Positions 28,532 through 46,094 of a DNA stretch of 64,000 nucleotides are shown piece by piece (the stretch's first letter is position 1; every line of letters begins with the position of its first letter). A program made the translations under genes and the position numbers. The stretch is taken from positions 71,614 through 135,613 of the IMG/VR virus record IMGVR_UViG_3300037067_013378. The stretch is one strand, 5' to 3'. The notes under the pieces are model-generated. The model was given only the letters and a program-made list of their open reading frames with translations. It did not search any database and was not told the DNA's origin. This DNA is from a virus. Taxonomy: Duplodnaviria; Caudoviricetes.

Positions 28532-28538
28532 AATTTCA

Positions 28539-29305: not shown

Positions 29306-29405
29306 AAAAAATTATATAGCTGCATAAATAGCAACAAATGTTATACTTATAATCATAAATATAAGTAAAACAACATACCAATTAATTGAAAATGTTTTCA
29401 TAATA

Positions 29406-29699
29406 TTATACATTATTATATTTAGAAACTAATTCATCTCTCAAATCATCAGTATATTTTGAATTAGGTATAAAAATGATGTTTGTACCAATACCACCAA
29501 TAGTTGATGGTTTATGAAAAACATAAAAATTGGTATCTCTTTTAATCCTATCTGAAATGTTACCAGATGAATTATATACATGTACTAATGTAAAAGTGTC
29601 GTTAATCTTATTATTTCTTATATCTTTAAGAAGTTCAATAACATTATCCATATCATCAAGAGATAGATTTGAAAATTCGTTTACAATTGTTTGTATCAT
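29406..29699 (-). CDS. Hypothetical protein (likely start 29699)
   Basis: TATATTTG promoter just upstream. Confidence 0.5.
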   Translation of the reverse strand: MIQTIVNEFSNLSLDDMDNVIELLKDIRNNKINDTFTLVHVYNSSGNISDRIKRDTNFYVFHKPSTIGGIGTNIIFIPNSKYTDDLRDELVSKYNNV

Positions 29700-29751
29700 A
29701 ATATTAAAATTTGACACAAATATAAGAATTTTTTGTTGAAATAAAAAATAA

Positions 29752-30648
29752 TTAATAATAATATGTTTTTTTATAATCATTTTCTAAAAAATAGGCATAT
29801 TTTATTAAAAAATTTTTTTCATAACCACCAGCGACTTCATCTGAATTTACATAAACCAAATTATTAAAATAATCAATATTTTCTTTATATTGTTCTTTTA
29901 TATAATACCAATTAAAACCACCATCTTGAACAATTATTTTATTAAAATTAGTAGATAAAATAGTTAATTTTTTTGTAAATGTAATATATAAAGCATACTT
30001 ATGACTAATTGGATAATATAAAAAATCATTACTCATGATTATATTGATATCACCTGTTATAAATGGGTACTTATTAAATAAACTATTTTTAATAAAAAAC
30101 CATTTACTGTTACAATTTAGTAAATAACTTAAATATTTTTGTTTTTCACTTGAATTTAAAAAACATAAATGAGCATCTTTTATATTTATATTAGAAACCT
30201 CTTTAAAAATATTGTTTAATTCAATTTCTATTATTTTTCTAATTTTATTTGATCTAAGCCATTCATAAATCAAATATTCAGCTATTAAAGGATATTTTTC
30301 TTTTATATCTAAATTTATATCACCAGATTCTATAATTTCGAAAATATTTGAAAAAATATCTTTAGCCTTTTGTTCGCTTTTTCCTAATATAGATGTTTCT
30401 ACATAATAAACATCATTTAAATTTAAGTGTTTTGCCATTTCATCAGATAATCTATAATAATTATTTTTACTAAAAACCTCTTCACATGTTCTTTCACCAT
30501 GTTCATTATAAATGTTTTTATTATTTTTTACCAAATAAAAAATTTTAGATTGTCTGTCATATGAATTATCATATGAAAAGTTTATTAATTGTGCCATTAT
30601 TGGACTTATATGATGATTTTGTGCCATTACTAAATTATTAATTTTCAT
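29752..30648 (-). CDS. DUF4238-like protein
   Basis: QNHHISP N-terminus; FITGD..YYPISHKYAL. Confidence 0.55.
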   Translation of the reverse strand: MKINNLVMAQNHHISPIMAQLINFSYDNSYDRQSKIFYLVKNNKNIYNEHGERTCEEVFSKNNYYRLSDEMAKHLNLNDVYYVETSILGKSEQKAKDIFSNIFEIIESGDINLDIKEKYPLIAEYLIYEWLRSNKIRKIIEIELNNIFKEVSNINIKDAHLCFLNSSEKQKYLSYLLNCNSKWFFIKNSLFNKYPFITGDINIIMSNDFLYYPISHKYALYITFTKKLTILSTNFNKIIVQDGGFNWYYIKEQYKENIDYFNNLVYVNSDEVAGGYEKNFLIKYAYFLENDYKKTYYY

Positions 30649-31348
30649 AATTTTTTAACCATTTTCTTATAGAATTATCTGAAACATTATATTTTCTTCC
30701 TGTTCCAGAATAACCTAATTCATTAATTTCAATAATTAATTGTTCATATGGTGGTCTTTCAACTTTTCTTTTTTTAGAATCTTTCTTATAACATTCTAAA
30801 CATCTATCACTATTTTTTGCCATTATATTACCGCATTCAGGACAAATATGTTCCTTTTTTTCTTTTTTAATTTTAATAGGTTGTATTTTACTTTTAAGAT
30901 TTTTTCCACAATGTGTATCAAGTGTTGCATTACAATTTGGACAAACAATTCTTAAATTTTCTATTCTGTTATCATTAGGTACACCATTTTTATGGTCTAA
31001 AATTAAACTCATATGCTTACCATTCCATTCTTCTCCTTGTCCACACATTTCACATATTCTTTCTTTTAATCCTTCTTTATATAATCTTTCTTTTAAATGA
31101 TTTGATGATTTATAATCTGATTTTTCTACTAAAATTTCTGTTAAATCTCTCTTAATATAATTTTGATTTAATAAATTTTTAGTTCTTCCAAAATGACTAA
31201 TATCAATATTAAATAATTTTATATAAGATGTTAAAGTATTATAATTACCTCCAAAATTTTTTAAGTTTAAATTTTTTAAAACATCTGTTTTATTATTAGA
31301 ATTTAATATAATTTCTCTTAATTCTTTTTCTGTAATATTCCATTTCAT
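30638..31348 (-). CDS. HNH homing endonuclease with C-terminal HTH
   Basis: LDHKNGVPNDNRIENLRIVCPNC; GRKYNVSDNSIRKW. Confidence 0.9.
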   Translation of the reverse strand: MKWNITEKELREIILNSNNKTDVLKNLNLKNFGGNYNTLTSYIKLFNIDISHFGRTKNLLNQNYIKRDLTEILVEKSDYKSSNHLKERLYKEGLKERICEMCGQGEEWNGKHMSLILDHKNGVPNDNRIENLRIVCPNCNATLDTHCGKNLKSKIQPIKIKKEKKEHICPECGNIMAKNSDRCLECYKKDSKKRKVERPPYEQLIIEINELGYSGTGRKYNVSDNSIRKWLKNYEN

Positions 31349-31412
31349 AATAGATTCTGTTATTTTTTAATTTATATATTAAAAAATATCGAACCCATTC
31401 GGAAAAAAAATG

Positions 31413-31495
31413 TGGGTGCAGAGAGATTCGAACTCCCGAAGTCCTAAGACTGATGCTCTACAGGCATCCGCAGTTGACCACTTTGCTATACACCC
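31413..31495 (-). tRNA. tRNA-Tyr(GTA)
   Basis: GATGC-CT GTA GA-GCATC, long variable arm. Confidence 0.93.
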
Positions 31496-31528
31496 ATTTA
31501 ATAAAAAAAGAAGTGTAATATATTTCAA

Positions 31529-31921
31529 TTACACTTCTTCATCTTTAAACAGTTCTTTTAATTTCAGATAACGAACTTTTTTCACCAAAAAACCTTGAAT
31601 TATTTTCTTCATTTCCTCATTCGAACCGAAGTAAGAATGATCAGATAATAAATACAACAATTCAACTTTTTCAGGTTCAAATTGTCCTTCAAATCCATAA
31701 CAAGAACAGTGTCCACCATGAACCTCATACAGTTCACCCGAAGATTTCTCTAAGAGTAAAAAATAAGAAGATTCTTCATACCCATCGCCATTAACTTCAG
31801 CAATTAAGATAAAGTATCTTTCTATCTCATGTTTTTCAACATGGTAGCTATATACAACATCATTAACAACATCGTCATATGACATACCTGAGTAGTCATC
31901 TAAAAATAAAAATTTTTCCAT
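31529..31921 (-). CDS. Hypothetical phage protein
   Basis: LYEVHGGHCSCYGFEGQ; RYLKLKELF. Confidence 0.7.
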   Translation of the reverse strand: MEKFLFLDDYSGMSYDDVVNDVVYSYHVEKHEIERYFILIAEVNGDGYEESSYFLLLEKSSGELYEVHGGHCSCYGFEGQFEPEKVELLYLLSDHSYFGSNEEMKKIIQGFLVKKVRYLKLKELFKDEEV

Positions 31922-32052
31922 AGTTATAATTGATTAGTTTTTTGGTAATTAAGAAATACATATCCTAATCGTTTTAACCAATTTGTTAACTAAGAATGAT
32001 TTTTACTTTTAAAATCTGTGTAAAGATAATAAAATATTTTTAATTATAAAAA

Positions 32053-32529
32053 TTATTTTCTTTTATTTAAAATATAATGTAATGTTCCTTTACTTGATAT
32101 ATTAAAATGATTCATTGTTTCTTTATATGAACGACATTTATTATAAAAATCAATAATTTCATTTGCTTCATATTTAATAATAAAAGAGGATGCATGTTTA
32201 GCATGTTTTTGTCTTTCTTCTTTAGGTGTGTCCATCATATTTTGACTTTTTGTGCCAAAATTAATATTATTCCAACTATTATCAATCTTATTGTTATTTA
32301 AATGTCTAATATCATAATTACTTTCATAAATTATATCACCAAATTTTTGATAAGCGACTAATTTATGAACATAACAACACATTATTTTATTTCCAAATCG
32401 TAAAGAAAAAATATAATAATTTTTTTTACTATCTAAATATATTTTTCTTTTTTTATTATATATGTTAAATACATTTCCATATTTATCTACATAATAACCT
32501 TTTTCATAAGCAATTTTTTCTACATGCAT
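32053..32529 (-). CDS. HNH endonuclease (HNH_3/I-HmuI-like)
   Basis: VHKLVA..IRHLNNNKIDNSWNNI..TKSQN. Confidence 0.85.
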   Translation of the reverse strand: MHVEKIAYEKGYYVDKYGNVFNIYNKKRKIYLDSKKNYYIFSLRFGNKIMCCYVHKLVAYQKFGDIIYESNYDIRHLNNNKIDNSWNNINFGTKSQNMMDTPKEERQKHAKHASSFIIKYEANEIIDFYNKCRSYKETMNHFNISSKGTLHYILNKRK

Positions 32530-32583
32530 AACTATTTTTATTTTTTATATCAATAAAATATAAAATAGTTTAAATATTTTTAG

Positions 32584-32657
32584 TACTGCCGATGAGATTC
32601 GAACTCACATTTCAAATCTTGAAGGGATTTTTTCCTGGCCAATTAGAAGACAGCAGC
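32584..32657 (-). tRNA. tRNA-Glu(TTC) with C33
   Basis: AAATC-CC TTC AA-GATTT. Confidence 0.88.
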
Positions 32658-32686
32658 ATATAAAATAATCAAATATTTATAAAAAG

Positions 32687-32762
32687 CGGTGCGTATGGGA
32701 TTTGAACCCATGAACTCAAGCGTGACAAGCTTGCATGATAGACCAGACTTCACCAACGCACC
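32687..32762 (-). tRNA. tRNA-Asp(GTC)
   Basis: CAAGC-TT GTC AC-GCTTG, G73. Confidence 0.93.
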
Positions 32763-32769
32763 ATATTAT

Positions 32770-32785
32770 CAACATGTCAAAGAAC
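32770..32785 (-). promoter_or_regulatory. boxA-like antitermination element
   Basis: GTTCTTTGACATGTTG; core shared with 41172-41185. Confidence 0.6.
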
Positions 32786-32793
32786 AATTTTTG

Positions 32794-32866
32794 CGGGAAT
32801 AACAGGGATCGAACCTGTAACCTACTGGTTAACAGCCAGTTGCTCTACCAATTGAGCTATATTCCC
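32794..32866 (-). tRNA. tRNA-Asn(GTT)
   Basis: ACTGG-CT GTT AA-CCAGT. Confidence 0.95.
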
Positions 32867-32877
32867 AAAAAATATAG

Positions 32878-32951
32878 TTGCGGGAGGTGGATTCGAACCA
32901 CCGACCTCTTGATTATGAGTCAAGCAAGCTGACCAACTGCTCTACCCCGCA
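32878..32951 (-). tRNA. tRNA-Met(CAT), initiator-like body
   Basis: TGCGGGGTAGAGCAG; CTTGA-CT CAT AA-TCAAG. Confidence 0.92.
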
Positions 32952-32960
32952 ATATTTCTT

Positions 32961-32973
32961 TTAAAGAACTCTT
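32961..32973 (-). promoter_or_regulatory. boxA-like element after first tRNA of array
   Basis: AAGAGTTCTTTAA, identical to 40987-40999. Confidence 0.6.
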
Positions 32974-32975
32974 AG

Positions 32976-33057
32976 TACCCCTAGAAGGACTCAAACCTTC
33001 ACGCCTTTCGGCACATGATCCTAAGTCATGGATGTCTATCAATTCCACCATAGGGGC
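32976..33057 (-). tRNA. tRNA-Leu(TAG)
   Basis: CATGA-CT TAG GA-TCATG; A19/U56 variant. Confidence 0.9.
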
Positions 33058-33060: not shown

Positions 33061-33091
33061 AAACAAAAAAACCAGCTTTTCGGCTGGTTTT
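33061..33091 (-). terminator. Attenuator terminator ahead of minus-strand tRNA array
   Basis: AAAACCAGC-CGAAAA-GCTGGTTTT plus T-run, 3 nt before tRNA-Leu. Confidence 0.85.
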
Positions 33092-33113
33092 CTTTATATA
33101 TTTATTCAAATCT

Positions 33114-33209
33114 TTATTTTGAACATACACATAGTTCCACCAGCTTAGATTTTGTCATCTCTTCATCTAAGTTATTAAGTAGATAATTATATATGTTACA
33201 ATTTTCCAT
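33114..33209 (-). CDS. Leader peptide A (31 aa) MENCNIYNYLLNNLDEEMTKSKLVELCVCSK
   Basis: ATG..TAA read by hand; contains GCTGGT complementary to terminator 5' arm; codons 1-18 match downstream tRNAs. Confidence 0.8.
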   Translation of the reverse strand: MENCNIYNYLLNNLDEEMTKSKLVELCVCSK

Positions 33210-33281
33210 TTGAATTTATTTTAATTTTATTTTTACTTATATATTCTTTTTAAAATGTCATTTTTTTCCGAAATGACTTTG

Positions 33282-33313
33282 CAAATATAAAACTTATATT
33301 TCAATATTCCAAA
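33282..33313 (-). promoter_or_regulatory. Bacteroidota-type housekeeping promoter for leader A
   Basis: TTTG-N20-TATATTTG. Confidence 0.75.
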
Positions 33314-33376
33314 AAAGTTTGCACATTTTTTTAAAAATATTTAAAATATTTTTCATTTATCTGATTATCAATATAT

Positions 33377-34108
33377 TTATTTTAAAGAATCATATGCTTT
33401 AGTTTTATCCATGCCTAAAACTTCAACTTTAAATTCGTAATTATTCATTAAATAATCTTTATTAACTACATCTAAAACAATATTACCTACATGTCTTCCT
33501 ATATTACCATCATGATTAGAATATACATCAATATTATATCCATCAGCAAAATTTCTTGACCAACTCATAGCTTGAACTTCTAATATAATATTTCTCCAAA
33601 TTTTTCTTCCACCTTTTTCTGGAATTTTAATTTTACCTTCTTTCATAAATTGTATAATTTTCTTTAAATATTCATAAGCTAAACCACAACCATGATATGA
33701 ATCTTTATCTATTAATAGTTCTTCTTGAACACTTTCATTAGTTATTTTATCATAATATTCTTTCTCATATCTGGTTTTATCATCTTTGTGAATAATTTCA
33801 TTACCATCTTTATCAAAATATGTTTTATATTTATTTTTAATACCAGAATATGATATATAATTAACATCCATAATAGCTGAACCATCTTTCATAACAGATA
33901 AAATACCTTTAAAAATTTGAGCATTTGGTTTATTAGTTATCTTATATTGTTTTTCAATTTTATCATCACCTTTCACTTCAATTTCTTCTGATTCAAAAGA
34001 AGAAACTTTATTTAAATATTTTTCTTTATAATTATTACCTATTCTAATATTTTAAGGTGTATCATTATTTTCGTTTAAGAAAGAATTAAAGTCTTTTATA
34101 TTTTTCAT
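33377..34108 (-). pseudogene. Hypothetical gene with one in-frame TAA at codon 19
   Basis: MKNIKDFNSFLNENNDTP*NIRIG.. continues in frame into ORF 33377-33976. Confidence 0.55.
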
Positions 34109-34563
34109 TTTAAAAAATTATTTTTTATTATATATATATATTTTTTTCCATTATAATTTAATGCTGTATTTCCATATTTATTTTTAATATTAACATCTGC
34201 ACCATTTTTTAATAATAATTTAATAATATTTTTATGATTAAATTTTGAAGCTATTATTAAAGCTGTATTTCCACCATTATTTTTAATATTAATATCTGCA
34301 CCATTTTTTAATAAAAGTTCAACTATATCTTTATATCCATAAAATGTTGCATGTAATAAAGCTGTCCACCCAATATTATCTTTATAATTAATATCAGCAC
34401 CTTTATCTAAAGCTATTTTAACACCTTTTATATAATTATTTTCAGCAGATTGTAATAATATATTTTCTGGAGATAAATCACCTAATTCTTTTAAAATGTC
34501 TTCGTCTGATTTAGGTTTCATCTTATCACGAAGACTTTCATTATATGATTTTAAATATTTCAC
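34105..34563 (-). CDS. Ankyrin repeat protein, paralogue of 6510-6884
   Basis: Shared MKYLK.YNESLRDKM.PKSDE.ILKELGDL.P; GWTALL, GNTAL repeats. Confidence 0.9.
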   Translation of the reverse strand: MKYLKSYNESLRDKMKPKSDEDILKELGDLSPENILLQSAENNYIKGVKIALDKGADINYKDNIGWTALLHATFYGYKDIVELLLKNGADINIKNNGGNTALIIASKFNHKNIIKLLLKNGADVNIKNKYGNTALNYNGKKYIYIIKNNFLK

Positions 34564-34637
34564 TCAAAAATATTTTTATTTTATATATTAAATAAATAAA
34601 AAATAAAAATAATATATCATACAATCAAATGATATAA

Positions 34638-35174
34638 TCAATTATTATCTTTTAAAGTGATAATAAAATCAAACATAATTTCAAATTCTTTATAATCTTT
34701 ACAAAAATGAATATGTTTCATATAACCAACATTTACATGTTGCATAATTTGATTAAATATATCATTCCACATTTCACCTATAATAAATATATCAGGTTTC
34801 ACTTTAGTTTCTCTTGTAATATCTAAAAGTAAAAATAATTCAGACATAGTTCCGAAACTACCTTTTTGTATAATAAAAACTGATAATTCTGAAATTAAAT
34901 AATTTAATCTTTCAAATATATTTTTACAAACAATTGTTTCTGATAGATAATCATTTCCTTTTGTAGATTTAAATAATTCACAAGTATAACCAATAACTTT
35001 ACCACTTGATTCATTAGCACCTTTAAATACAGCTTCCATAAGTCCTCTGTATCCACCGTTTTTAATAATATATTTTTTCTTAGCTAAAAATTCGCCAATT
35101 TTAACACTATCTAAATATTCAGGTGTATCAGTAATATTATAAGAACCACCAAAAAATGTTGCGTATTTTTTCAT
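34638..35174 (-). CDS. LOG/lysine-decarboxylase-like nucleotide-binding protein
   Basis: FFGGS, NGGYRGLMEAV, ERL, KGSFGTMSEL. Confidence 0.85.
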   Translation of the reverse strand: MKKYATFFGGSYNITDTPEYLDSVKIGEFLAKKKYIIKNGGYRGLMEAVFKGANESSGKVIGYTCELFKSTKGNDYLSETIVCKNIFERLNYLISELSVFIIQKGSFGTMSELFLLLDITRETKVKPDIFIIGEMWNDIFNQIMQHVNVGYMKHIHFCKDYKEFEIMFDFIITLKDNN

Positions 35175-35182
35175 ATAAATTT

Positions 35183-35491
35183 TCAATAAATTTTTTTAAC
35201 ATCAATATTTAAATAATTTTTTGCATATTTTCTAAATAAAATTATTATATCAGTTAATGATATTTTATAATCAGAATTTAAATAAAAAAATATTTCTTTA
35301 TTGACAACTAAATTTTTTGTTTTTATATGATATATAAAAACACCATTATAATTTTTATCATAAAAATTAAAAGCTAATTCATTTATTTCATTTTTTGTTA
35401 AATTAGAAAAAATATTATGTAAATATTTTTATTCTGGTTTCATACGAACCAGTTTAATTTTTTCAATATCTTTATCTAATTTATCTTTCAT
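35183..35491 (-). pseudogene. DKDIEKIKLARM-family gene with in-frame TAA at codon 21
   Basis: MKDKLDKDIEKIKLVRMKPE*KYLHNIFSNL; paralogue 55975 has E at this position. Confidence 0.65.
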
Positions 35492-36198
35492 TAATATTGT
35501 TCAATATATTTAAAATTCATATTAAAATATTTATTTGTCAAAGATAATATCTTTTTTTCAATATCACAATTTATTAATATTTTAGAATATTTCTTCAAAT
35601 TGTTATCAAGTAATAAACTCATAAATAAAGAATTATTATAATATAATATATTTTCATTATCAGAATAATATTTCATATATGAATATGTGTGTATATTATC
35701 GTGAAAATAATATGTTTTATCTAAAATACTATTTAGTTCTATTTTTAATTTTATTAATATACTATAAATAAATTTATCGTCTGGCTTCATTCGAGCCAGT
35801 TTAATTTTTTCAATATCTTTATCTAATTTATCCATATTAAAAAATTAAATAATATATAATTTTTCATATTTATCTTGATTTAAAATATCTAACATTGTTA
35901 CACTTGTTAAAGATAAATTATAATATTCATTTATTTTGTTTAAAAACTTAGATAATATTAAATTTTTATTAAAAATTTCTGAATTATATAAAAAAAGAAA
36001 TAATTGACTACCACAAAATAAAACATTATTATCAATAACAAATAATATTTTCTTATCTGAATTTATACATATTTTTAAGGTATTATCATTAAAATTGTAA
36101 GTATTGCAATATTTAATAGTTTCATAAATAATTCTATCAAAATTACTCATTCTATTAATCTTTATTTTTTCAATATCTTTATCCAATTTATCTTTCAT
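35491..36198 (-). CDS. Two DKDIEKIKLARM-family genes (35491-35835, 35845-36198)
   Basis: Shared N-terminal motif. Confidence 0.7.
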
Positions 36199-36280
36199 AA
36201 AACAAATATAGTAATTTTTTAATAAAAAATGGTGTATTTAATTAAATACACACTATAATAATATATTTTAATTATTAATA

Positions 36281-36793
36281 CTAAAATCCACCTTTATCAC
36301 ATGTTGCAAATTTTTCAACAAGATGAAACCATTTTTCAGCTTGAAATCTTAATTTTTTAGATTTTTTCATTTCATTTAAAAATTTTACTCTCATATGGTG
36401 TTGAACAATGTAACGAATTTTATCAGGATTACCACCTACTGATTTAATCCATTCAATATTTTGTTCTATATACACAAGAGATAAATCTTCATGTCCATGT
36501 GCTGAATATGTATTTTTTTCTTCATTAAAGAAAGTTGTGTCAATTTTACCTAAATCATGAAATACACCAGCAAGAATAAGATTTATATTCTTATATTTTT
36601 TATGTAAACGATTAGTTACTACTTTAGTATGAATATACAATAGGTCTTCTGGATGCCATTCTAAATTTTGATGAATCATTTTCATTTTATTAATATCATC
36701 AACCAATTCTTTTGGCATAATAGGAAGTAACACTTCTTCAAAAAGGTTATTACTCTTACTAAAAATAATATGTATTTTCTTAAAAAATCTCAT
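36281..36793 (-). CDS. Stand-alone HD-domain protein resembling the HD domain of CCA-adding enzymes
   Basis: QNLEWHPED..HT..LAGVFHDLGK..HGHE..HHM. Confidence 0.8.
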   Translation of the reverse strand: MRFFKKIHIIFSKSNNLFEEVLLPIMPKELVDDINKMKMIHQNLEWHPEDLLYIHTKVVTNRLHKKYKNINLILAGVFHDLGKIDTTFFNEEKNTYSAHGHEDLSLVYIEQNIEWIKSVGGNPDKIRYIVQHHMRVKFLNEMKKSKKLRFQAEKWFHLVEKFATCDKGGF

Positions 36794-36848
36794 TATTTAT
36801 AAATTATACTACAAAATTAATAAAAATATATATAATAAAAAAATTTTA

Positions 36849-37820
36849 TTAATCAAAAGTTTGATTCATTTGACTTGATATTCTAACCATCTCATCATAT
36901 TCATCTGCAGTAAGATCATTAAAGAAAAAACCAATTGGGTTTATTTTCTTATTATCTTTCATTACTTCATAATGTAAATGTGGGCCAGTTGATTTACCTG
37001 TGTTTCCAACTTCACCAATAACATGATTTCTTTTTACTACTTGTCCTTTTTTAACATTTATTTTACTCATATGAGCATATAATGTTTTATAACCATAACC
37101 ATGATCAATAATAACATGATTACCATATCCTCTACCACCAGTATAAGATTTAACTTTATCATCTATATGAATAATAACACCATTACCTGTTGCATATATA
37201 GGTGTACCATTTTTAGCACTAAAATCAATACCATAATGAAATTTTTTAGTTCTATATATTGGGTCTATTCTATATCCCCAACCTGATGCTGTTCTTTTTA
37301 ATGTTCTATTTGAAATAGGTTGTATAGCTGGTACATGTTCAAAAAATTTTTTGTTTTTTTGAACTTGCATTTGTAATGTATCCATTTCATAATAAGAAAC
37401 TGAAATTTTATATTCTAATTGTGAAATTCTTTTATATGTTTTATTTACTATTTCTAAATAATTAGAATTATTAACTTTCTCAATTTTATTTATATCAAAA
37501 TCTTTAATATCATCATATAAATTAGGATTAGAAGCAAATAATTCTCTATATATTGATGTATCTCTAATTAAAACTTCATCTAATAAAAAATTAAGACTTC
37601 TTAATCTTATATTCATTATTTGATAATCAAGATATAAATTATCAATTTTTTCTATTAATTTCTTTTCTTTAGGTGTGTTATAAAAATATGATATAGTTAA
37701 AATTGAAGTAAAACCGAATATAATAAAAAATAAAATATAAATAAGTAATTTTTTAAATGAAAATTTTATTCTTTCATAATTTAATGTTTCTTTGTTATAT
37801 TTATACTTTTTAATGAACAA
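36849..37820 (-). CDS. M23 family peptidase (Bacteroidota-like, N-terminal TM)
   Basis: HYGIDF, YAHMS, STGPHLHYEV. Confidence 0.92.
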   Translation of the reverse strand: MFIKKYKYNKETLNYERIKFSFKKLLIYILFFIIFGFTSILTISYFYNTPKEKKLIEKIDNLYLDYQIMNIRLRSLNFLLDEVLIRDTSIYRELFASNPNLYDDIKDFDINKIEKVNNSNYLEIVNKTYKRISQLEYKISVSYYEMDTLQMQVQKNKKFFEHVPAIQPISNRTLKRTASGWGYRIDPIYRTKKFHYGIDFSAKNGTPIYATGNGVIIHIDDKVKSYTGGRGYGNHVIIDHGYGYKTLYAHMSKINVKKGQVVKRNHVIGEVGNTGKSTGPHLHYEVMKDNKKINPIGFFFNDLTADEYDEMVRISSQMNQTFD

Positions 37821-37904
37821 AATATATTTTTATTTTTATATATTAAAAATAAAAATGAGTAGATAAAAATAAATCTACTCATTAAACAATAAAAATATTA
37901 TTAT

Positions 37905-38192
37905 TTATTCATCTAAAAATAGATATTCTTCTTTTATCATATCTTCTAAATTATCTCTATCGTCTTCTGATAATTCACCAAATTCTTCTTCATACCATTC
38001 AACTAATTCATCAATTACAGATTGAGAAGCATTAGGATTAATATCTTTTTCATATAAAGATTCAAAATTATCTTCATTATAATCATTATCTAAATTACTA
38101 TCATCTGATGTTCTTTCATTATACATCATTTCAACTGTCAATTGAGAATAATTATCTTTTAATAATTCAAAATTCTTTTTTAAAATACTCAT
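37905..38192 (-). CDS. Acidic hypothetical protein
   Basis: ORF track. Confidence 0.55.
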   Translation of the reverse strand: MSILKKNFELLKDNYSQLTVEMMYNERTSDDSNLDNDYNEDNFESLYEKDINPNASQSVIDELVEWYEEEFGELSEDDRDNLEDMIKEEYLFLDE

Positions 38193-38325
38193 AATATTAA
38201 AAAATTATTTTTTACATATATATAAAAAAAATAAAAAAAAGTTTATTAAATATAATATATTATATATATCATTATTCTGGACCTTTTTTCATACTTTGAT
38301 ATATATTTTATAATATTGTTAAATT

Positions 38326-38886
38326 TTATTTTTTAATCTTTTTAATATTATAACCATTATTTTTTAAAAATTCTAATAATTTTTCTTCTAATGATTCACT
38401 TATTGGTGAATTTTCTTTTATAATTGATTCAGATAACATTTTTTCTAATTCTGGAAATAAATAATTTTTAATCATATCTCTATTAGAATATGCATAAATT
38501 TCTGCTATTCTTTTTTGTCTAAATTCTTCTAATTCTTGATCTTTCATAGTGTTTTCTTCATTAAGATTTTTCATTATTTCTTCATAATCTTGTTCTGGTA
38601 CAATAATTTCTTCTTCCATTAATTTATCAATAGGAACATAAACAGTTATATTAAAACCAATTAAAGTAACACCTTGCTTGCTTATTTCTTTTATTTGAAA
38701 AATTTCATAAGTTTCATTATTTTTATATATTATCTTACCACCTAAACCTACTATATTATTTAAACGTTTTAAAAAATTTTTATATTCCTTTCTTTCATTA
38801 TATTTATGTGTTATATATAAACCAACAACAGTAGTTAATAAGAAAGATATTATACTTAAAAATATGTGTATTAATTCAAATTCCAT
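38326..38886 (-). CDS. Membrane-anchored hypothetical protein
   Basis: N-terminal TM helix. Confidence 0.6.
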   Translation of the reverse strand: MEFELIHIFLSIISFLLTTVVGLYITHKYNERKEYKNFLKRLNNIVGLGGKIIYKNNETYEIFQIKEISKQGVTLIGFNITVYVPIDKLMEEEIIVPEQDYEEIMKNLNEENTMKDQELEEFRQKRIAEIYAYSNRDMIKNYLFPELEKMLSESIIKENSPISESLEEKLLEFLKNNGYNIKKIKK

Positions 38887-39068
38887 AAAAATATATTTAT
38901 TTTTTTAATTATATATTAATTGTTATAAGTCAAATATTTAAAGTTTTTATAATAGTCATTATGTCACAATTACATATATTTTAAGACATTTTGTCATATT
39001 TTTTGAAATGGTATATGTTTTGTAAATATATGTTATAAATTAACAAAAAATAAAGAAAGGAGTAAATT

Positions 39069-39488
39069 ATGACATTATTAAAATTAAGAAATTCAGAACC
39101 AAGTTTTAATTCTTTTATTGATGAATTTTTTGATAAAAATTCATTTCTATCAAATTATTTAAGTGATATTAAAACAAATATAAAAGAATTAGATGATAAG
39201 TATGTTTTAGAATTATCACTTGCTGGTTTTAAAAAAGAAGATATCAAAATTGATATTGATAATGATATCTTAACTATTTTATCTGATGTAAAAACAGAAA
39301 ATGAAGAAGAAACTGATAACTATAAAAGATACGAGTTTAGAAAATCTTCATTTCAGAAATCATATTCAATACCATCTGATGTAGATATAAATAAAATTAC
39401 AGCATCACAAGAAAATGGTGTTCTTAAAATTGAGTTGGTAAAACAAGAAGATAAAATAAAACAAATAAAAACAATTGAAATTAAATAA
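39069..39488 (+). CDS. Small heat shock protein Hsp20
   Basis: LAGFKKEDIKI..FQKSY..ENGVLKI alpha-crystallin domain. Confidence 0.93.
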   Translation: MTLLKLRNSEPSFNSFIDEFFDKNSFLSNYLSDIKTNIKELDDKYVLELSLAGFKKEDIKIDIDNDILTILSDVKTENEEETDNYKRYEFRKSSFQKSYSIPSDVDINKITASQENGVLKIELVKQEDKIKQIKTIEIK

Positions 39489-39516
39489 AAAAAGCCACTT
39501 AATTGTGGCTTTTTTT
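39489..39516. terminator. Bidirectional intrinsic terminator
   Basis: AAAAAGCCAC/GTGGCTTTTT between convergent genes. Confidence 0.8.
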
Positions 39517-39862
39517 AACAACTAAAATTATCATTTTTAAGAATTATTTTTGAGAAAAAATTGTATATTATTTTAATATTTAGAATATGTAAAATATTTT
39601 CATTTATTTTATTTTGTATCATATAATAATCCATATTATATTCATATGTTAATTTTTTAAAAATTTTATAATTATAAATAAAATATTTCGATTTTATATT
39701 ATATTTTGCAAATAATTTATTATTCTTAAAATAAAAAATCATATCAGGATATTTATCATCATATTCAATATTCAATTTTGAAAATGATTTATAAATAAAT
39801 CTATCTTCTGGTTTCATTCTTGCTAATTTAATTTTTTCTATATCTTTATCTATTTTATCCAT
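39515..39862 (-). CDS. DKDIEKIKLARM-family protein
   Basis: MDKIDKDIEKIKLARMKPE. Confidence 0.7.
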   Translation of the reverse strand: MDKIDKDIEKIKLARMKPEDRFIYKSFSKLNIEYDDKYPDMIFYFKNNKLFAKYNIKSKYFIYNYKIFKKLTYEYNMDYYMIQNKINENILHILNIKIIYNFFSKIILKNDNFSC

Positions 39863-39911
39863 TATAATTCAAAGTAAGTAGTAGATTAAATTAAATATTT
39901 AAATATTATTT

Positions 39912-40288
39912 TTAAAAAATTTGAAAACCTTTATTAAAAAAGATTTTTTTAGTTAGTAATATTTCAGAATGATGCCATATTTTTAATAGTAAAACATCTT
40001 CTTTTGTTTTTTGTATAAAATATTTTATTATTAAATCTGTTATATTTTGATCAATTATTCCTTCTGTATTTCTTAATGCAAAATAAATATAATTATGATT
40101 ATAATATAATTTATGTCTATCTTTATCATAATTAAACATGAATTCGTTGTTATATAAATAATAATCACGTAAACTTTTATCCACTCTAATCTTTTTTAAA
40201 AGTGGAAACATATAATAAAAAATCTTTCATCCTTTGACAATCTTGCCACTTTTATCTTTTCAATATCTTTATCTAAACTATCTTTCAT
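39912..40288 (-). pseudogene. DKDIEKIK-family gene frameshifted in a T-run
   Basis: MKDSLDKDIEKIKVARLSKDERFF is one base out of frame with ORF 39912-40211. Confidence 0.6.
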
Positions 40289-40493
40289 TTTTTCTTTCTT
40301 CATTTATTTCTTGTAAAGTTTTACATTTCTTTCCAGTTTTTTCTTCTATACACTTTTTATGATATTTATCTTGCCACATAGTTTCACTAAACCCATTCTT
40401 TTCTTCTTTCTCATGCCAGAAAAATAAAAATGGTTTGTTGCATATTTCACAACATTTTTCCATTTCAGTATAGTGATGTATAGTTTTTTTCAT
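40278..40493 (-). CDS. Small zinc-binding hypothetical protein
   Basis: CEIC..HKKC. Confidence 0.5.
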   Translation of the reverse strand: MKKTIHHYTEMEKCCEICNKPFLFFWHEKEEKNGFSETMWQDKYHKKCIEEKTGKKCKTLQEINEERKNER

Positions 40494-40640
40494 TATGATA
40501 ATTTTGTACAAATATAATAAAATAAAATGTAATAAAAAATATTAATAAAAAATAATGTATATGAATTAATAGTAAATTAAAGCATTTAAGGGTTTTTATT
40601 TCAATAAAATATAAATTATTTAAAAATATTTTTAAACTTT

Positions 40641-40671
40641 TTTGTTTTTTAAAATATAAGTACTATATTTG
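40641..40671 (+). promoter_or_regulatory. Bacteroidota-type housekeeping promoter for leader B
   Basis: TTTG-N19-TATATTTG. Confidence 0.75.
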
Positions 40672-40725
40672 CAAAATCAAATTTAGAAAAAAACGATATT
40701 TTTTAAAGAATATATAATAAAACAA

Positions 40726-40830
40726 ATGAGAAATAATATTAACATATCAGTGATTAGTTCGATTAAACGCCATTGGTCATTTAAAAACCAAATGGGTCTG
40801 GTATGCTTATATCTTTTTTGTAATGTATAA
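40726..40830 (+). CDS. Leader peptide B (34 aa) MRNNINISVISSIKRHWSFKNQMGLVCLYLFCNV
   Basis: ATG..TAA read by hand; contains GGTCTGG complementary to terminator 5' arm; codons 8-20 match downstream tRNAs. Confidence 0.8.
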   Translation: MRNNINISVISSIKRHWSFKNQMGLVCLYLFCNV

Positions 40831-40856
40831 ATAAGAAAAAATTAAAAGAGATAAAG

Positions 40857-40889
40857 AAAATCCAGACCACAAAAAGGTCTGGATTTTTT
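40857..40889 (+). terminator. Attenuator terminator ahead of plus-strand tRNA array
   Basis: AAAATCCAGACC-ACAAAAA-GGTCTGGATTTT plus T-run. Confidence 0.88.
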
Positions 40890-40911: not shown

Positions 40912-40985
40912 GGGGGTATCGGCAATTGGCTAGTCAAACTGACTCCAAATCAGTATCAGTGGGAGTTCGAATCTCTCTGCCCCTG
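40912..40985 (+). tRNA. tRNA-Trp(CCA)
   Basis: ACTGA-CT CCA AA-TCAGT, G73. Confidence 0.9.
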
Positions 40986-40986
40986 C

Positions 40987-40999
40987 AAGAGTTCTTTAA
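40987..40999 (+). promoter_or_regulatory. boxA-like element after first tRNA of array
   Basis: AAGAGTTCTTTAA. Confidence 0.6.
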
Positions 41000-41004
41000 T
41001 ATAT

Positions 41005-41079
41005 GGTGCTTGTAGTTCAGTTGGTTAGAATGTCTGATTGTGGATCAGAAGGTCATCAGTTCAAATCTGATCAAGCACC
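41005..41079 (+). tRNA. tRNA-His(GTG)
   Basis: TCTGA-TT GTG GA-TCAGA, G-1/C73. Confidence 0.95.
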
Positions 41080-41082
41080 CTA

Positions 41083-41257
41083 AATTTATCGGTTGAAAAA
41101 CAGATAAATGATAATTATCGGCTAAATAGGCGATAATTTACAATTATAGACTAAAAAGGCTATAATTTAGGTCTTTGACATGTTGGTATTGAAAATTTTT
41201 TAAAAATTAGGTTTGTAGACCTATAAACAAGTTTTATAGGTTTATAGACCTATAATT
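41083..41257 (+). repeat. Tandem degenerate hairpin repeats in tRNA spacer
   Basis: Three ~29-nt units (AATTATCG-N10-CGATAATT type) then AGGTTTRTAGACCTATAA twice. Confidence 0.6.
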
Positions 41258-41258
41258 T

Positions 41259-41331
41259 GGAGTGATGACCGAGTTGCTCAAGGTGTTGGTCTGAAAAACC
41301 AATAATGTAGGTTGGATTCCTACTCACTCCA
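41259..41331 (+). tRNA. tRNA-Phe(GAA), C19/G56 variant
   Basis: TTGGT-CT GAA AA-ACCAA; T-loop TTGGATT. Confidence 0.85.
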
Positions 41332-41378
41332 CTCAGAACCAATATTATTTAATATATACTTTAAAAATAAAGTGTTAT

Positions 41379-42245
41379 ATGAATAATATTAATTGGGTTG
41401 AAGTTCAAAAATTTTATGATGATAATCATTTTTGGAAAGATGTTTTAAAAGAATTTAAGTTAAATAACGAAAAATTATGTAATGGTGTTAAATTAGGTTA
41501 TTTTAAAACAAGAAATAGAGAAGAATCATCAAAATTACATAACCAATTATATCCAAGAAAACATACAGAAGAAAGTAAAAAATTAATATCAGAAAAAAGA
41601 AAAAAATTTTTAATTGAAAATCCAGATAAAGTTCCATATTTAATGAATCATTATTCTAAAGGTGATAGTTATCCAGAAAAATATTTTGAAAATATTCTTA
41701 AAAAATATAATATTAATTATATTAAAAAATATAGAATTCACACATATGAATTAGATTTTGCAATTTTAGATAAGAAAATTGATATTGAAATTGATGGAGA
41801 ACAACATTATTTAGATAAAAGAATTATTGAATCTGATAAGAGAAGAAATATTTATTTAGAAAATGATGGCTGGGTTATATTAAGAATAAGATGGTCAGAT
41901 TATCAAAAATCAAATAAAGAAGAATATGTTAAAAATTTTATTAATTATTTAAACGATTTAACTTTAAATACACCCATATTTAATATAATTGAAAAAATTG
42001 ATTCACATAAAAATTATTGTGAATGTGGAAATATAAAATGGAAAAGTTCAAAAATTTGTTTATCTTGTTATAATAAAAAAAGAATGTTATATAAAAAACC
42101 ATCTTATGAACAATTACTTAATGATATAAAAGAAACAAATTATTCTGCAACAGGAAGAAAATATGGAGTTTCAGATAATTGTATTAGAAAATGGTTAAAA
42201 AAATATAAAACGGAATATAGCTCAGTTGGTAGAGCATCTGACTGA
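41379..42245 (+). CDS. DUF559/Vsr-like endonuclease with NUMOD3-like motif and C-terminal HTH
   Basis: YELDFA..IEIDGEQH..GWVILRIRW; GRKYGVSDNCIRKW. Confidence 0.85.
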   Translation: MNNINWVEVQKFYDDNHFWKDVLKEFKLNNEKLCNGVKLGYFKTRNREESSKLHNQLYPRKHTEESKKLISEKRKKFLIENPDKVPYLMNHYSKGDSYPEKYFENILKKYNINYIKKYRIHTYELDFAILDKKIDIEIDGEQHYLDKRIIESDKRRNIYLENDGWVILRIRWSDYQKSNKEEYVKNFINYLNDLTLNTPIFNIIEKIDSHKNYCECGNIKWKSSKICLSCYNKKRMLYKKPSYEQLLNDIKETNYSATGRKYGVSDNCIRKWLKKYKTEYSSVGRASD

Positions 42246-42283
42246 TATTCAGAAGGTCGATGGTTCAATTCCATCTATTCCGA
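42211..42283 (+). tRNA. tRNA-Ile(GAT)
   Basis: TCTGA-CT GAT AT-TCAGA. Confidence 0.92.
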
Positions 42284-42354
42284 CTAAATTAAAAAATATT
42301 TTTATAAAAATTTTTTAAATTCAAAAAATTATATTACATTTGTATTATAAAAAT

Positions 42355-42428
42355 GACCTCTTAGCTCAGTTGGTAGATGCACCACACTTTTAATGTGGGG
42401 GTCCTGGGTTCGAATCCCAGAGGGGTCA
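42355..42428 (+). tRNA. tRNA-Lys(TTT)
   Basis: CCACA-CT TTT AA-TGTGG. Confidence 0.92.
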
Positions 42429-42448
42429 CAAAAATTTTTAAGAATTGA

Positions 42449-42644
42449 AAAATGGGAAGTTGGCTTGGAAGCAGCCAGTAACCTTGGAAAAGTACAAACT
42501 TTTAAAGAGTGATTTGAAGCCTTATGTGATGAATATGAGTTCCGTATTATTAATCCCTAAAAGATTTGGGAAAATTACATTAAAAGTACCAAACACTAGA
42601 GGTTGTAATCCTTACAAATCTTTGGCGTAACAGCACACCATTTT
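42449..42644 (+). ncRNA. Structured RNA containing the 23S rRNA H43/H44 (uL11-binding) motif with two insertions
   Basis: GTTGGCTTGGAAGCAGCCA ... TTTAAAGAGT ... GCGTAACAGC-ACA closed by AAAATGG/CCATTTT. Confidence 0.75.
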
Positions 42645-42665
42645 ATTTTAAAAATTTTTGTAAGT

Positions 42666-42693
42666 CCTCTCACCTTATCGGTGAGAGGTTTTT
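42666..42693 (+). terminator. Intrinsic terminator inside the tRNA array
   Basis: CCTCTCACC/GGTGAGAGG plus TTTTT. Confidence 0.75.
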
Positions 42694-42703
42694 GCTATTG
42701 TAA

Positions 42704-42776
42704 GGGGGTGTAGTTTAACTGAAAAAAACCTGACACTACGGATGTCATAATGGGAGTTTGAATCTTCTCACCCTCA
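42704..42776 (+). tRNA. tRNA-Arg(ACG), A19/U56 variant
   Basis: TGACA-CT ACG GA-TGTCA. Confidence 0.85.
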
Positions 42777-42798
42777 CTAAAAAATAAAAAATTATATT

Positions 42799-43023
42799 AT
42801 GATGAACATTAAAGAAATTATCAAAGATAATAAAGTATATTTTCACTTTATTAGAGCAAATAATGCTTTTTATAAAATTTTATATAATGATATATGGTAT
42901 ATGTTTCCAGTTTCTTTATTAGAATTAGGAGATGCTACATTATTATCTGAAGATAAAGCTATATTTTTCATGAGGTATATTAGAAAAGCTTTAGAAAATA
43001 ATGAATTTGTTATAGCAACATAA
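42799..43023 (+). CDS. Hypothetical protein
   Basis: FPV..LGDATL..DKAIFFMRYIRK. Confidence 0.65.
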   Translation: MMNIKEIIKDNKVYFHFIRANNAFYKILYNDIWYMFPVSLLELGDATLLSEDKAIFFMRYIRKALENNEFVIAT

Positions 43024-43027
43024 ACAT

Positions 43028-43116
43028 GGAAGGTCGAAATGGACAGAGCTTATCCGTTTTGAAAACGGTGATGTCAGTGAGTAACTGATGTAGGAGTTGG
43101 ATTCTCCTACCTTCCG
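43028..43116 (+). tRNA. Atypical tRNA-Ser(TGA)
   Basis: Acceptor GGAAGGT/ACCTTCC-G, long variable arm, CCGT-TT TGA AA-ACGG; weak D-arm, TTGG T-loop. Confidence 0.7.
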
Positions 43117-43205
43117 CTTTTTGAATGATTTATAATTCACTATCTTATATTTTTTAAGTTATTGAATGATTTATCATACGTATAAGGTTTAAATCTTATT
43201 AATAT

Positions 43206-43283
43206 AGGATGTTAGCGCAGTTGGTTTAGCGCATCTGCCCTACAAGCAGAGGGTCATCAGTTCAAATCTGATACATCCTACCA
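43206..43283 (+). tRNA. tRNA-Val(TAC) with C33 and encoded CCA
   Basis: TCTGC-CC TAC AA-GCAGA. Confidence 0.92.
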
Positions 43284-43378
43284 AATTAAAATTTTTCAAA
43301 AAACTTCAAAAAAACTGACATTTTTCAGTTTTATGATATCATCAAATAATATATACATAAAAAATATATTATATAAAG

Positions 43379-43768
43379 ATGAAAGAGAAATTTATTCCTT
43401 ACCACACACATTTAATAGTAAAAGGTTATATTTATAATCCACCTATGAATGAAGAAAAATTAAATGAATTTTTTATAGATTTAGTAGAATCTGTTAATAT
43501 GAAAGTTGTGGCTGGCCCAACATCAGTCTATGTTGATGATTTAGGTAATGAAGGTATGACAGGAACAGTTACGTTAGCAACAAGTCATGCAAGTCTTCAT
43601 GTGTGGTCAGAAGAAAATCCATCACTTTTTCATTTTGATTTATACAGTTGTTCTAAATTTGATCACAAAAAAGTTTTAGATTTTATTGGTGATAGATTTG
43701 ATATGATTGATTATAAATTTTGGTTTATTGATAGAAATGATGATTTTCAACTTATTGACAAAAATTAA
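43379..43768 (+). CDS. S-adenosylmethionine decarboxylase proenzyme-like protein
   Basis: GMTGTVTLATSHASLHVWSE..DLYSC. Confidence 0.8.
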   Translation: MKEKFIPYHTHLIVKGYIYNPPMNEEKLNEFFIDLVESVNMKVVAGPTSVYVDDLGNEGMTGTVTLATSHASLHVWSEENPSLFHFDLYSCSKFDHKKVLDFIGDRFDMIDYKFWFIDRNDDFQLIDKN

Positions 43769-43769
43769 A

Positions 43770-43802
43770 AAAATGCTCTACCTTTATAAGTAGAGCATTT
43801 TT
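43770..43802. terminator. Bidirectional intrinsic terminator
   Basis: AAAATGCTCTAC/GTAGAGCATTTT. Confidence 0.8.
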
Positions 43803-43817
43803 CAATTTTTATATAAA

Positions 43818-44186
43818 TTAAGAAATAACTACAGTTTTAAATGTAAAATTTAAATTTAAAGCTTCGGAATAATATTCACCAAGTTCTTTTAAATCTTCAT
43901 CATCTTCTTCATAACCCCAAATAATAGTTTCAACATTTTTTGTTAAATCTATTTTTCGTAAAATGTTATAAATACATTTACTTGAAGAAGTATTGATGTA
44001 TTCTAGTTCAAAAGATATAGTTAATTTATTATTTTTTAATAAATTTAACAAAATTTCTTCAACATTTGAATAGAAATTAATAGCGTGTTCAGGGAAAGAT
44101 TTACCACTTAATGTGAAAATGTTTTTTTCATCATCAAAATAAATTGTTGGTGTGTTAGGTGATTTTTCAATTAATAAATTATTCAT
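43818..44186 (-). CDS. SiaC/DUF1987 family protein
   Basis: TPTI..LSGKSFPE..YINTSSSK..W.YEEDDED. Confidence 0.85.
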   Translation of the reverse strand: MNNLLIEKSPNTPTIYFDDEKNIFTLSGKSFPEHAINFYSNVEEILLNLLKNNKLTISFELEYINTSSSKCIYNILRKIDLTKNVETIIWGYEEDDEDLKELGEYYSEALNLNFTFKTVVIS

Positions 44187-44342
44187 AAAATAAGGTTTTA
44201 AAAAGTTTTGTAAATATTTTTAAAGAAAGTGCAAAGTTATATTTAAAAAATGTATAAAAAAATTTATTATATTTAAAAAAATATTATATTTGTTGAACAT
44301 TTAAATTTGTTATATTAATATATAAAAATAAAAGACTAAATT

Positions 44343-44708
44343 ATGGCTGTATCAAATTACCATGAACCATATTTTAATATTGATAGAGAAAATAATAGAA
44401 TTGATTTAAGTGGTAGATCAACTATAGAATATGCTTATAATCATTATATGGGTATCATAGAAAAAGTGAAAGAATATATAAAAGAAAAACCAGAAAAGGT
44501 TGATATACATGTAAAATTAGATTATTTTAATACTACATCATCAAAATGTATTTTAGATTTGTTTAAAACTTTTAGAGAAATATCAATGTTAAAGCATAAT
44601 ATTACAATATATTGGTATTATGAAGAAGATGATGAAGATATAAAAGAAGCTGGTATGGATTATAGTGAAATTTTAACATATATAAAATTTGAGTTTGTTG
44701 AATTTTAA
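44343..44708 (+). CDS. SiaC/DUF1987 family protein
   Basis: LSGRS..YFNTTSSK..WYYEEDDED. Confidence 0.85.
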   Translation: MAVSNYHEPYFNIDRENNRIDLSGRSTIEYAYNHYMGIIEKVKEYIKEKPEKVDIHVKLDYFNTTSSKCILDLFKTFREISMLKHNITIYWYYEEDDEDIKEAGMDYSEILTYIKFEFVEF

Positions 44709-45184: not shown

Positions 45185-45228
45185 AATTTTTTAAACTTTT
45201 TCATAAAAAATAATATAATTTAATTATT

Positions 45229-45315: not shown

Positions 45316-45338
45316 CTTAAAAAATATTAATTTTTTAT

Positions 45339-46050: not shown

Positions 46051-46094
46051 ACTTTTTTAAAAAATTAAACTATATTAAAAAAAATATTTAAATT

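Follow-up and report, generated by a model that had tools for sequence, protein, structure and literature searches.

Why should a virus set, ahead of each array of its transfer RNA (tRNA) genes, a short reading frame listing the codons that those very tRNAs decode? The question is raised by a stretch of 64,000 nucleotides (nt), the window hereafter, which corresponds to bases 71614-135613 of the 135,613-bp contig of IMG/VR virus record IMGVR_UViG_3300037067_013378 (Caudoviricetes; 22% G+C; 28 tRNAs called on the contig). ARAGORN and Rfam place 25 tRNA genes in the window, in three groups that we name arrays A, B and C, and each array is headed by a cassette with a leader open reading frame (ORF), a segment of that ORF complementary to one arm of a terminator, and the terminator itself. 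Comparison of sequences and folding models together suggest that each array is quite probably controlled by a transcription attenuator of the leader-peptide kind, in which translating ribosomes would decide whether RNA polymerase reaches the tRNA genes.

Anatomy of the cassettes

A cassette consists, in this order, of a promoter-like site, a conserved 31-nt block, a short ORF, a G+C-rich hairpin with a T-run and the first tRNA, which in cassettes A and B lies only a few bases from the T-run or its T-rich tail. On the minus strand, cassette A begins with a promoter-like site at 33282..33313, recognized by alignment with cassette B and of the Bacteroidota type (TTTG, 20 nt, TAnnTTTG; we take such boxes to be the promoter consensus of the Bacteroidota). 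The block follows at 33238..33268, then a leader ORF of 31 codons plus stop at 33114..33209, codons 1-18 of which (33156..33209) form what we call the sensor run. Its antiterminator segment (ORF nucleotides 65-72; 33138..33145) pairs with the 5' arm of an intrinsic terminator at 33065..33089, a 7-bp G+C stem with a 6-nt loop and a T-run, placed 24 nt past the leader stop and, in the pipeline's count, 15 nt ahead of the first tRNA, tRNA-Leu(tag), which starts at 33057. Cassette B, on the plus strand, repeats this layout: promoter-like site at 40641..40671 (TTTG, 19 nt, TAnnTTTG), block at 40686..40716, leader ORF of 34 codons plus stop at 40726..40830, sensor run in codons 8-20 (40747..40785), antiterminator segment at 40794..40809, again pairing with the 5' arm of a terminator at 40856..40889 (9-bp stem, 7-nt loop, T-run), and tRNA-Trp as first tRNA, starting at 40912.

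An earlier interpretation of the window, made from the letters alone (the sequence-only reading), had described two homologous cassettes with alignable upstream DNA, leader ORFs of 31 and 34 codons, a terminator and a first tRNA. All this holds at the positions just listed, except that the phage has three cassettes, not two, the third falling just outside the window. This cassette C lies upstream (contig 70855-71183; L001:8856-9185), its block about 330 nt ahead of the first tRNA of array C. In contig coordinates and on the plus strand, the block occupies 70855-70885, a leader ORF of 39 codons 70912-71031, the sensor run (codons 11-28) 70942-70995 and the terminator, hairpin and T-run, about 71068-71100, and the first tRNA is at 71184.

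Leader codons and array content

Array A (19998..33057, minus strand) comprises Leu-tag, Met, Asn, Asp, Glu, Tyr, Cys, three further tRNAs with anticodon CAT, and Leu-taa, whereas array B (40912..48780, plus strand) is made of Trp, His, Phe, Ile-gat, Lys, Arg-acg, Ser-tga, Val, Ser-tga and Ser-gct. Array C, taken whole, holds Gly-acc, Pro, Ala, Gln, Pro, Gly-tcc, Thr and a split Arg(tct), with Gln, Pro, Gly-tcc, Thr and the split Arg(tct) in the window (755..3743, plus strand). Jointly the three arrays read every sense codon, no codon family being split between two of them. The sensor runs are spelled in the same sets, as the sequence-only reading had it for A and B: M, E, N, C, I (ATA), Y, L and D in leader A; S, V, I (ATT), K, R (CGC), H, W and F in leader B; T, A, Q, G, R (AGA) and P only in leader C. 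These uninterrupted runs of 18 (A), 13 (B) and 18 (C) own-array codons cover every anticodon class of the array behind them (nine of nine in both A and B), the ATA match in leader A being conditional on one of the four CAT tRNAs being tRNA-Ile2, and a CTT match on superwobble by U34. One of the CAT tRNAs has a 1:72 mismatch and is initiator-like; that at 19998-20073 is Ile2-like, with C4:G69 and C5:G68, presumably the determinants of tRNA-Ile2 for TilS in Escherichia coli.

Could such a match arise by chance? A permutation test of leader codons against genome codon usage had been suggested with the initial description, and the leaders come through it clearly. Taking the usage of 91 long ORFs of the contig as background, the probability of the run is 1e-5 for leader A, 2e-5 for B and 2e-12 for C, that of covering all classes given the run is 0.04, 9e-4 and 0.4, and the products are about 4e-7, 2e-8 and 7e-13, respectively. 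A six-frame scan of all 135.6 kb finds full coverage of the classes of an array in only three runs of single-array codons, namely leaders A, B and C, which each adjoin their own array. Sensor run B includes the rare codons CGC, TCG and TGG; that CGC is there although CGN accounts for 0.27% of phage codons points to one codon per tRNA species rather than to a mirror of codon usage. Cassette C, situated beyond the sequence that the initial description had covered, provided an out-of-sample prediction which held, for it lists the set of array C, split tRNA-Arg(tct) included. Since leader composition predicts array content, leaders could help in annotating odd or split phage tRNAs, as the AGA codons of leader C do with the split tRNA-Arg.

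Terminator and antiterminator

The antiterminator segment (region 2) is 7-10 nt long, lies within the ORF two to four codons past the sensor run, and is complementary to the 5' arm of the terminator (region 3). The sequence-only reading had picked out CTG-GTN segments as complements of that arm; indeed, they are equal to the terminator 3' arms (region 4). Leaders were folded under a 28-nt ribosome mask, and the pairing of region 3 was scored before region 4 is made. In cassette A, region 3 is paired at 0.96-1.0 as long as the ribosomal A site is at or before codon 18, and at 0.02 or less from codon 21, with the sensor run ending at codon 18; in cassette B the value is 0.86-0.89 with the A site no further than codon 19 and drops to 0.12 or less once codon 22 is reached (run ending at codon 20), and in cassette C it is 0.80 through codon 27 and then 0.07 or less at codon 29 and after (run ending at codon 28). 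In the predicted structures of all three the partner of region 3 is region 2, and the equilibrium probability of the terminator, computed with the whole terminator present, switches at the same codon positions. By these models, a ribosome stalled at the last own-array codon would still leave the antiterminator free, and one stalled any later would not.

How would the device work? Transcription would start at the shared promoter block and enter a leader ORF of 31-39 codons, the core of which samples at least one codon for each tRNA species of the array behind. A ribosome held at any of the sampled codons would leave region 2 free to pair with region 3, so that no terminator would form and RNA polymerase would read into the tRNA genes, a logic akin to an OR gate with multiple inputs. 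If decoding were fast, the ribosome would be over or beyond region 2 while regions 3 and 4 are made; the terminator would then form, and the array would be off. The net outcome would be a negative feedback, specific to each array, that matches the synthesis of phage tRNAs to the demand of decoding, and the same circuit would also answer a loss of tRNAs caused by host shut-off or by host anticodon nucleases. These nucleases are one possible selective reason only, and a plain feedback of supply and demand fits equally well. The sequences themselves show the anatomy, the statistics of the codons, the agreement with predicted structures and, as described below, co-variation in relatives; translation of the leaders, the sign and the size of the response and its biological trigger are what we infer from this arrangement.

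Co-variation in relatives

If leaders track arrays, they must change when tRNA genes are grouped otherwise. The RNA ligase of the contig has its nearest match among deposited phages in LR756501, an uncultured phage of 735,411 bp (36.9% identity). Of the 66 matches that this complete genome of 735 kb has to the Rfam tRNA model, most fall into five large arrays, each with its tRNAs on one strand. All five have a cassette in front, with block, short ORF, antiterminator segment and terminator. The groupings of tRNAs differ from those of the present contig, and the leaders differ accordingly. As cases in point, an array of Met, Gln, Ile-tat and Glu stands behind a leader core of M, I, Q and E; an array of five Leu isoacceptors only, behind a core with all six Leu codons; Trp, His, Phe, Lys and Ser, behind S, K, H, F and W, with no I, V or R; Arg, Thr, Val, Ala, Gly and Pro, behind T, P, A, V, R and G, with no Q; and Ile-gat, Cys, Asp, Asn and Tyr, behind Y, N, D, C and I. 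Between the leader with its terminator and the last of these arrays (LR756501 185000-189000; L093) there is an ORF with a bL12-like C-terminal domain, which by its position would also fall under the control of the attenuator. The same genome carries two tRNAs with anticodon CTA, amber suppressors, at 690585-690737 (L098).

A scan of IMG/VR with the 31-nt block returned at least 120 stretches. Together with LR756501 and the present contig, these stretches yield 29 unique cassettes with downstream tRNAs, so that the cassette is seen, besides LR756501, in about 25 other IMG/VR contigs. All 29 have an ORF of 20-44 codons with ATG and stop, in which the matching codons stand in one uninterrupted frame, and a terminator of -9 to -19 kcal/mol with T-run, 21-47 nt past the stop, whose 5' arm has a partner within the ORF. 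New combinations appear among them; in one, a leader run of 14 codons, for L, S, H and Y only, precedes an array with Tyr, Ser, His and Leu. Composition was compared in those 27 cassettes that have four or more tRNAs downstream. All 19 amino acids compared have higher counts in leaders whose array includes the tRNA (for example, 2.33 against 0.06 for P, 1.0 against 0.06 for W and 4.25 against 0.17 for Q). Own-array matches amount to 409 of 788 leader residues, against 191 +/- 28 and at most 304 under 20,000 permuted pairings, a contrast to be read with the caution that related cassettes are homologous, so that the permutation p-value overstates their independence. The tRNAs for Q, V, I, L, H, S and Y are grouped in two or more ways across phages, with the leader following each time; composition is kept in this way while the order of residues and their physico-chemical class vary freely, following the tRNA set. 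The sequence-only reading had proposed to look for such cassettes upstream of tRNA arrays in related phages and to see whether their codon content co-varies with array content; they exist, and it does, both in LR756501 and in the IMG/VR contigs.

The antiterminator co-varies too. Terminators differ among the 29 cassettes (21 distinct arm starts), and the partner within the ORF changes alongside: the duplex of a leader with its own arm has a mean energy of -13.1 kcal/mol, against -7.4 for mismatched pairs, and the own arm is the best partner in 18 of the 29.

The upstream block and boxA-like motifs

Is the conserved upstream DNA part of the attenuator? It had been presented as such when the cassettes were first noticed; the alignment is real, but the block is not specific to attenuators, and as an attenuator-specific element it had to be rejected. 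An exact copy of the 31-nt block stands ahead of the gene of the major head protein of the contig and a copy with two mismatches ahead of that of the head maturation protease (contig 46446-46476 and 48930-48960, minus strand; L219), about 38 nt before the start codons. Most block matches in IMG/VR, partly through the shortness of the loci, have no tRNA within 700 nt. Its presence ahead of head genes makes the block a promoter-class or 5' leader element common to heavily expressed structural genes. A 23-nt promoter motif occurs in the window only at the sites of cassettes A and B, against 0.14 occurrences expected; promoter-like matches across the window are, overall, not above chance, and a longer pattern, in which the -7 box is joined to the block, has no viral match.

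Downstream of the terminators, boxA-like sequences, GTTCTTTAA or GTTCTTTGA, lie within about 100 nt of each of the three terminators of these cassettes and also past those of LR756501. In array A, GTTCTTTAA follows the first tRNA at 32961..32969 (minus strand), in array B the same sequence follows the first tRNA at 40991..40999 (plus strand), and the motif of cassette C is at contig 71115-71123 (plus strand). They hint at a processive antitermination, similar to that of ribosomal RNA operons, which might take over once the attenuator is passed.

Alternative explanations

To be sure, several observations weigh against attenuation as we picture it, the shared ancestry of the cassettes being one of them. 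At several early sensor positions, the terminator is the favoured equilibrium fold of cassettes B and C. In most cassettes the ORF runs on for 7-9 codons after region 2 and the distance from that region to the stop codon is 24-40 nt, so that a ribosome waiting at the stop would leave region 2 uncovered, and termination would have to depend on timing or on steric hindrance, with a ribosome on region 2, or between regions 2 and 3, at the moment when regions 3 and 4 emerge. Tracking of isoacceptors, at the third base, is marginal (odds ratio about 1.8, p about 0.05) and confounded by G+C content. Finally, a hairpin of the sensor with region 2 (1:2) does not rise above codon-shuffled controls (mean z +0.34; none of the 29 cassettes significant at 5%), and among cassettes A, B and C only C has a strong 1:2 helix in its minimum free energy structure. 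The likeness to attenuation of the trp/his type, put forward in the sequence-only reading, therefore extends to the geometry of the antiterminator and stops short of the classical 1:2 anti-antiterminator or pause hairpin, a candidate dropped because pairing of the sensor with region 2 is at the level of shuffled controls. Lacking a supported 1:2 hairpin, an untranslated leader would probably let polymerase read through by default.

This default lends itself to another account of the same hardware, as a general gauge of translation health instead of a detector of host defences that deplete specific tRNAs. Any slow or absent translation of the leader, be it through amino-acid starvation, ribosome damage or the early stage of infection, would open the arrays, and codon matching would merely keep a shortage of the phage's own tRNAs from going unseen. 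The promoter block, common to the arrays and to the major head protein and head protease genes, points in that direction, that is, to demand during heavy protein synthesis, and a phage of 22% G+C with tRNAs for all sense codons suggests supply, not defence. However, such a gauge has no need for one codon per tRNA species, hardly used ones such as CGN included, and the gene of a tRNA-repair-type RNA ligase inside array A fits tRNA damage as a selective pressure. We regard this account as possible, if somewhat doubtful. By contrast, it is quite improbable, in our opinion, that the effector is different or the sign opposite, with translation of the leader as a shield of the transcript against Rho or nucleases and less tRNA made upon stalling. 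Protection from Rho by translation is common in bacteria, and the boxA-like elements close to the first tRNAs point to a role of processive antitermination in these units; the 2:3 pairing, conserved and co-varying, nevertheless competes with an intrinsic terminator and is exposed while the ribosome is in the sensor run, which is the classical sign.

Ribosomes might also be dispensed with altogether. Established T-box elements couple tRNA status to a choice between terminator and antiterminator, and a leader RNA could likewise bind tRNAs by pairing of codon and anticodon, the ORF being incidental. This we hold to be very improbable, for the matching codons form a single frame from ATG to stop in all 29 cassettes, neither a T-box nor any other Rfam family appears at E <= 1 beyond chance-level matches, and there is no specifier loop and no T-box motif; thirteen to eighteen adjacent specifiers would be without precedent. 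Just as remote is the prospect that the small ORFs encode functional peptides, or that their match to the arrays reflects chance and shared ancestry, the hairpins being ordinary terminators or insulators before tRNA genes. Terminator-like hairpins and short ORFs are certainly common in AT-rich DNA, and promoter-like matches in the window are no more frequent than chance would have it, but chance probabilities of 1e-7 to 1e-12 per leader, leader compositions that follow the tRNA set of relatives through changes of residue order and class, and an in-ORF segment co-varying with the terminator arm all speak against it.

Known systems and significance

The closest known systems are leader-peptide attenuators in amino-acid operons of enterobacteria, some multivalent (thrL, reading Thr and Ile; the ilvGMEDA leader, reading Ile, Leu and Val) and others with a single input (trpL, hisL, leuL and pheL). 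The resemblance lies in a short leader rich in regulatory codons, translated there and presumably here, with an intrinsic terminator just downstream, in an alternative pairing that overlaps the terminator 5' arm, in a regulatory region of about 13-18 codons and in the relief of termination by stalling at any regulatory codon. Yet the phage cassettes target tRNAs, not biosynthetic enzymes; where enterobacterial leaders carry runs of one to three amino acids, theirs sample as many as nine tRNA species, with one or two codons for most of them; they have no supported 1:2 hairpin, their ORF runs 7-9 codons past region 2, and they are borne by a phage, presumably of Bacteroidota. Attenuation of a component of translation is exemplified by pheST, the operon of phenylalanyl-tRNA synthetase in E. 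coli, whose pheM leader reads the level of charged tRNA; there, unlike in the phage, a single amino acid is sensed, the target codes for proteins and the genes are cellular. T-box riboswitches likewise tie tRNA status to a terminator/antiterminator decision upstream of translation-related genes, but they bind uncharged tRNA directly, through one specifier codon, without a ribosome and with a conserved Stem I and T-box motif. In positions 32900-41000 of the window Rfam gives no T-box match at E <= 1, the only match of leader type being Trp_leader at 23.9 bits (E 0.23), under the 41-bit cut-off, and no Rfam family reaches threshold for these leaders.

Among published cases the nearest is the trn L-array of Anabaena PCC 7120, an array of tRNA genes on a megaplasmid that is induced under translational stress (PMC8421152) and repressed by TrcR, a ribbon-helix-helix protein that acts at the promoter (PMC10272220). 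There too an accessory tRNA array is switched on when translation is impaired, as we propose here, but by way of a protein repressor and on a cellular megaplasmid, and neither article mentions an attenuator or leader. The selective context of phage tRNAs, as counter-defence or codon supplement, replacing host tRNAs that are depleted or cleaved, is that of PMC10264068, whose title and abstract make no mention of cis-regulation of phage tRNA genes. In the article on huge phages (PMC7162821) the words attenuation, leader and terminator are absent, and full-text literature searches found no account of leader-peptide attenuation of tRNA genes. The regulator would thus be of a known kind, and what appears new is its target, tRNA genes, its many inputs, its phage-borne nature and its two-helix design.

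We find it fairly probable, beyond the single cassette, that huge phages run a closed-loop controller of the decoding capacity of the cell. Every tRNA array would be regulated by its own leader, sampling each tRNA species encoded, with genes between leader and tRNAs co-controlled in some relatives (the bL12-like gene of LR756501); arrays would be on by default, shut only by fast translation and fired from the promoter class of capsid genes, and the control would have been rebuilt repeatedly as tRNA genes were re-sorted among arrays. If true, these would be the first tRNA genes known to be under leader-peptide attenuation, and this the first virus known to gauge tRNA availability codon by codon. 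The reason why phages carry tRNA genes has been debated for decades, between codon supplementation, compensation of host shut-off and escape from anticodon nucleases; a sensor spelled in the codons of each array would state, in sequence, what the phage measures, and it opens the question to direct experiments. Attenuation itself would gain a new class of targets, tRNAs, and a higher count of inputs, up to nine tRNA species per leader, and such leaders could find use as small reporters of how well specific tRNAs are supplied.

Source of the contig and neighbouring genes

Where does this DNA come from? CheckV puts the completeness of the contig at 19% (IMG/VR virus record). The largest genomes in the article on huge phages, the 735-kb one included, belong to its Mahaphage clade, with predicted hosts in the Bacteroidetes (PMC7162821), a prediction in agreement with the TTTG / TAnnTTTG promoter-like sites on the contig. 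The contig is a fragment of a Mahaphage-like huge phage, presumably with a host among the Bacteroidota. Megablast of 14 kb against deposited phages gave no match. As an anchor of synteny, the M23 peptidase led to distant loci only, all free of tRNAs; the RNA ligase led to no close viral loci with a single query, and with an alignment as query to 80 loci, where the six nearest contigs have no tRNA arrays and more distant arrays (L043, L052) have no matching leader.

Array A is interspersed with homing endonuclease genes and one RNA ligase gene. The latter (window 27254-28531, minus strand), between tRNA-Cys and tRNA-Tyr, combines PF09414 with a PHA02142 OB-fold; it is a candidate tRNA-repair enzyme whose gene would share a transcript with the array. 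Promoter-like sites of the TTTG / TAnnTTTG form recur at 23186-23216 and 24467-24498 (both on the minus strand), just ahead of tRNA-Leu(taa) and the initiator-like CAT tRNA, so that parts of array A may have promoters of their own. Array C has its peculiarities as well. The split tRNA-Arg(tct) (window 3459-3743, plus strand) is interrupted between anticodon positions 34 and 35 by an insert of about 210 nt, in which Rfam calls no group I intron, even at E <= 1. A tRNA-Pro(tgg) at contig 71266-71351 is 86 nt long, with a long variable arm in the style of class II, unusual for tRNA-Pro, and a normal 74-nt tRNA-Pro(tgg) is found 1.2 kb downstream. The first tRNA of the array, tRNA-Gly(ACC) at contig 71184-71257, has an A34, rare among bacteria, where it is normally limited to tRNA-Arg(ACG); Gly(acc) is also present in two related contigs (L150, L214), and leader C holds both GGT and GGC codons.

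Elsewhere in the window there are genes for a patatin-like phospholipase (11953-12915, minus strand), a TnpB/IS605 OrfB-like protein (17402-18592, minus), an Hsp20 (39069-39488, plus), a ClpB-like double AAA+ ATPase (56901-59315, plus) and an M42 aminopeptidase (59839-60924, minus). Between cassettes A and B, five small genes on the minus strand (35440-35500, 35790-35840, 36150-36210, 39810-39865 and 40240-40295) open with nearly identical sequences of some 18 residues, among which K, D, L, I and E abound, go on to unrelated bodies and make up a paralogous family.

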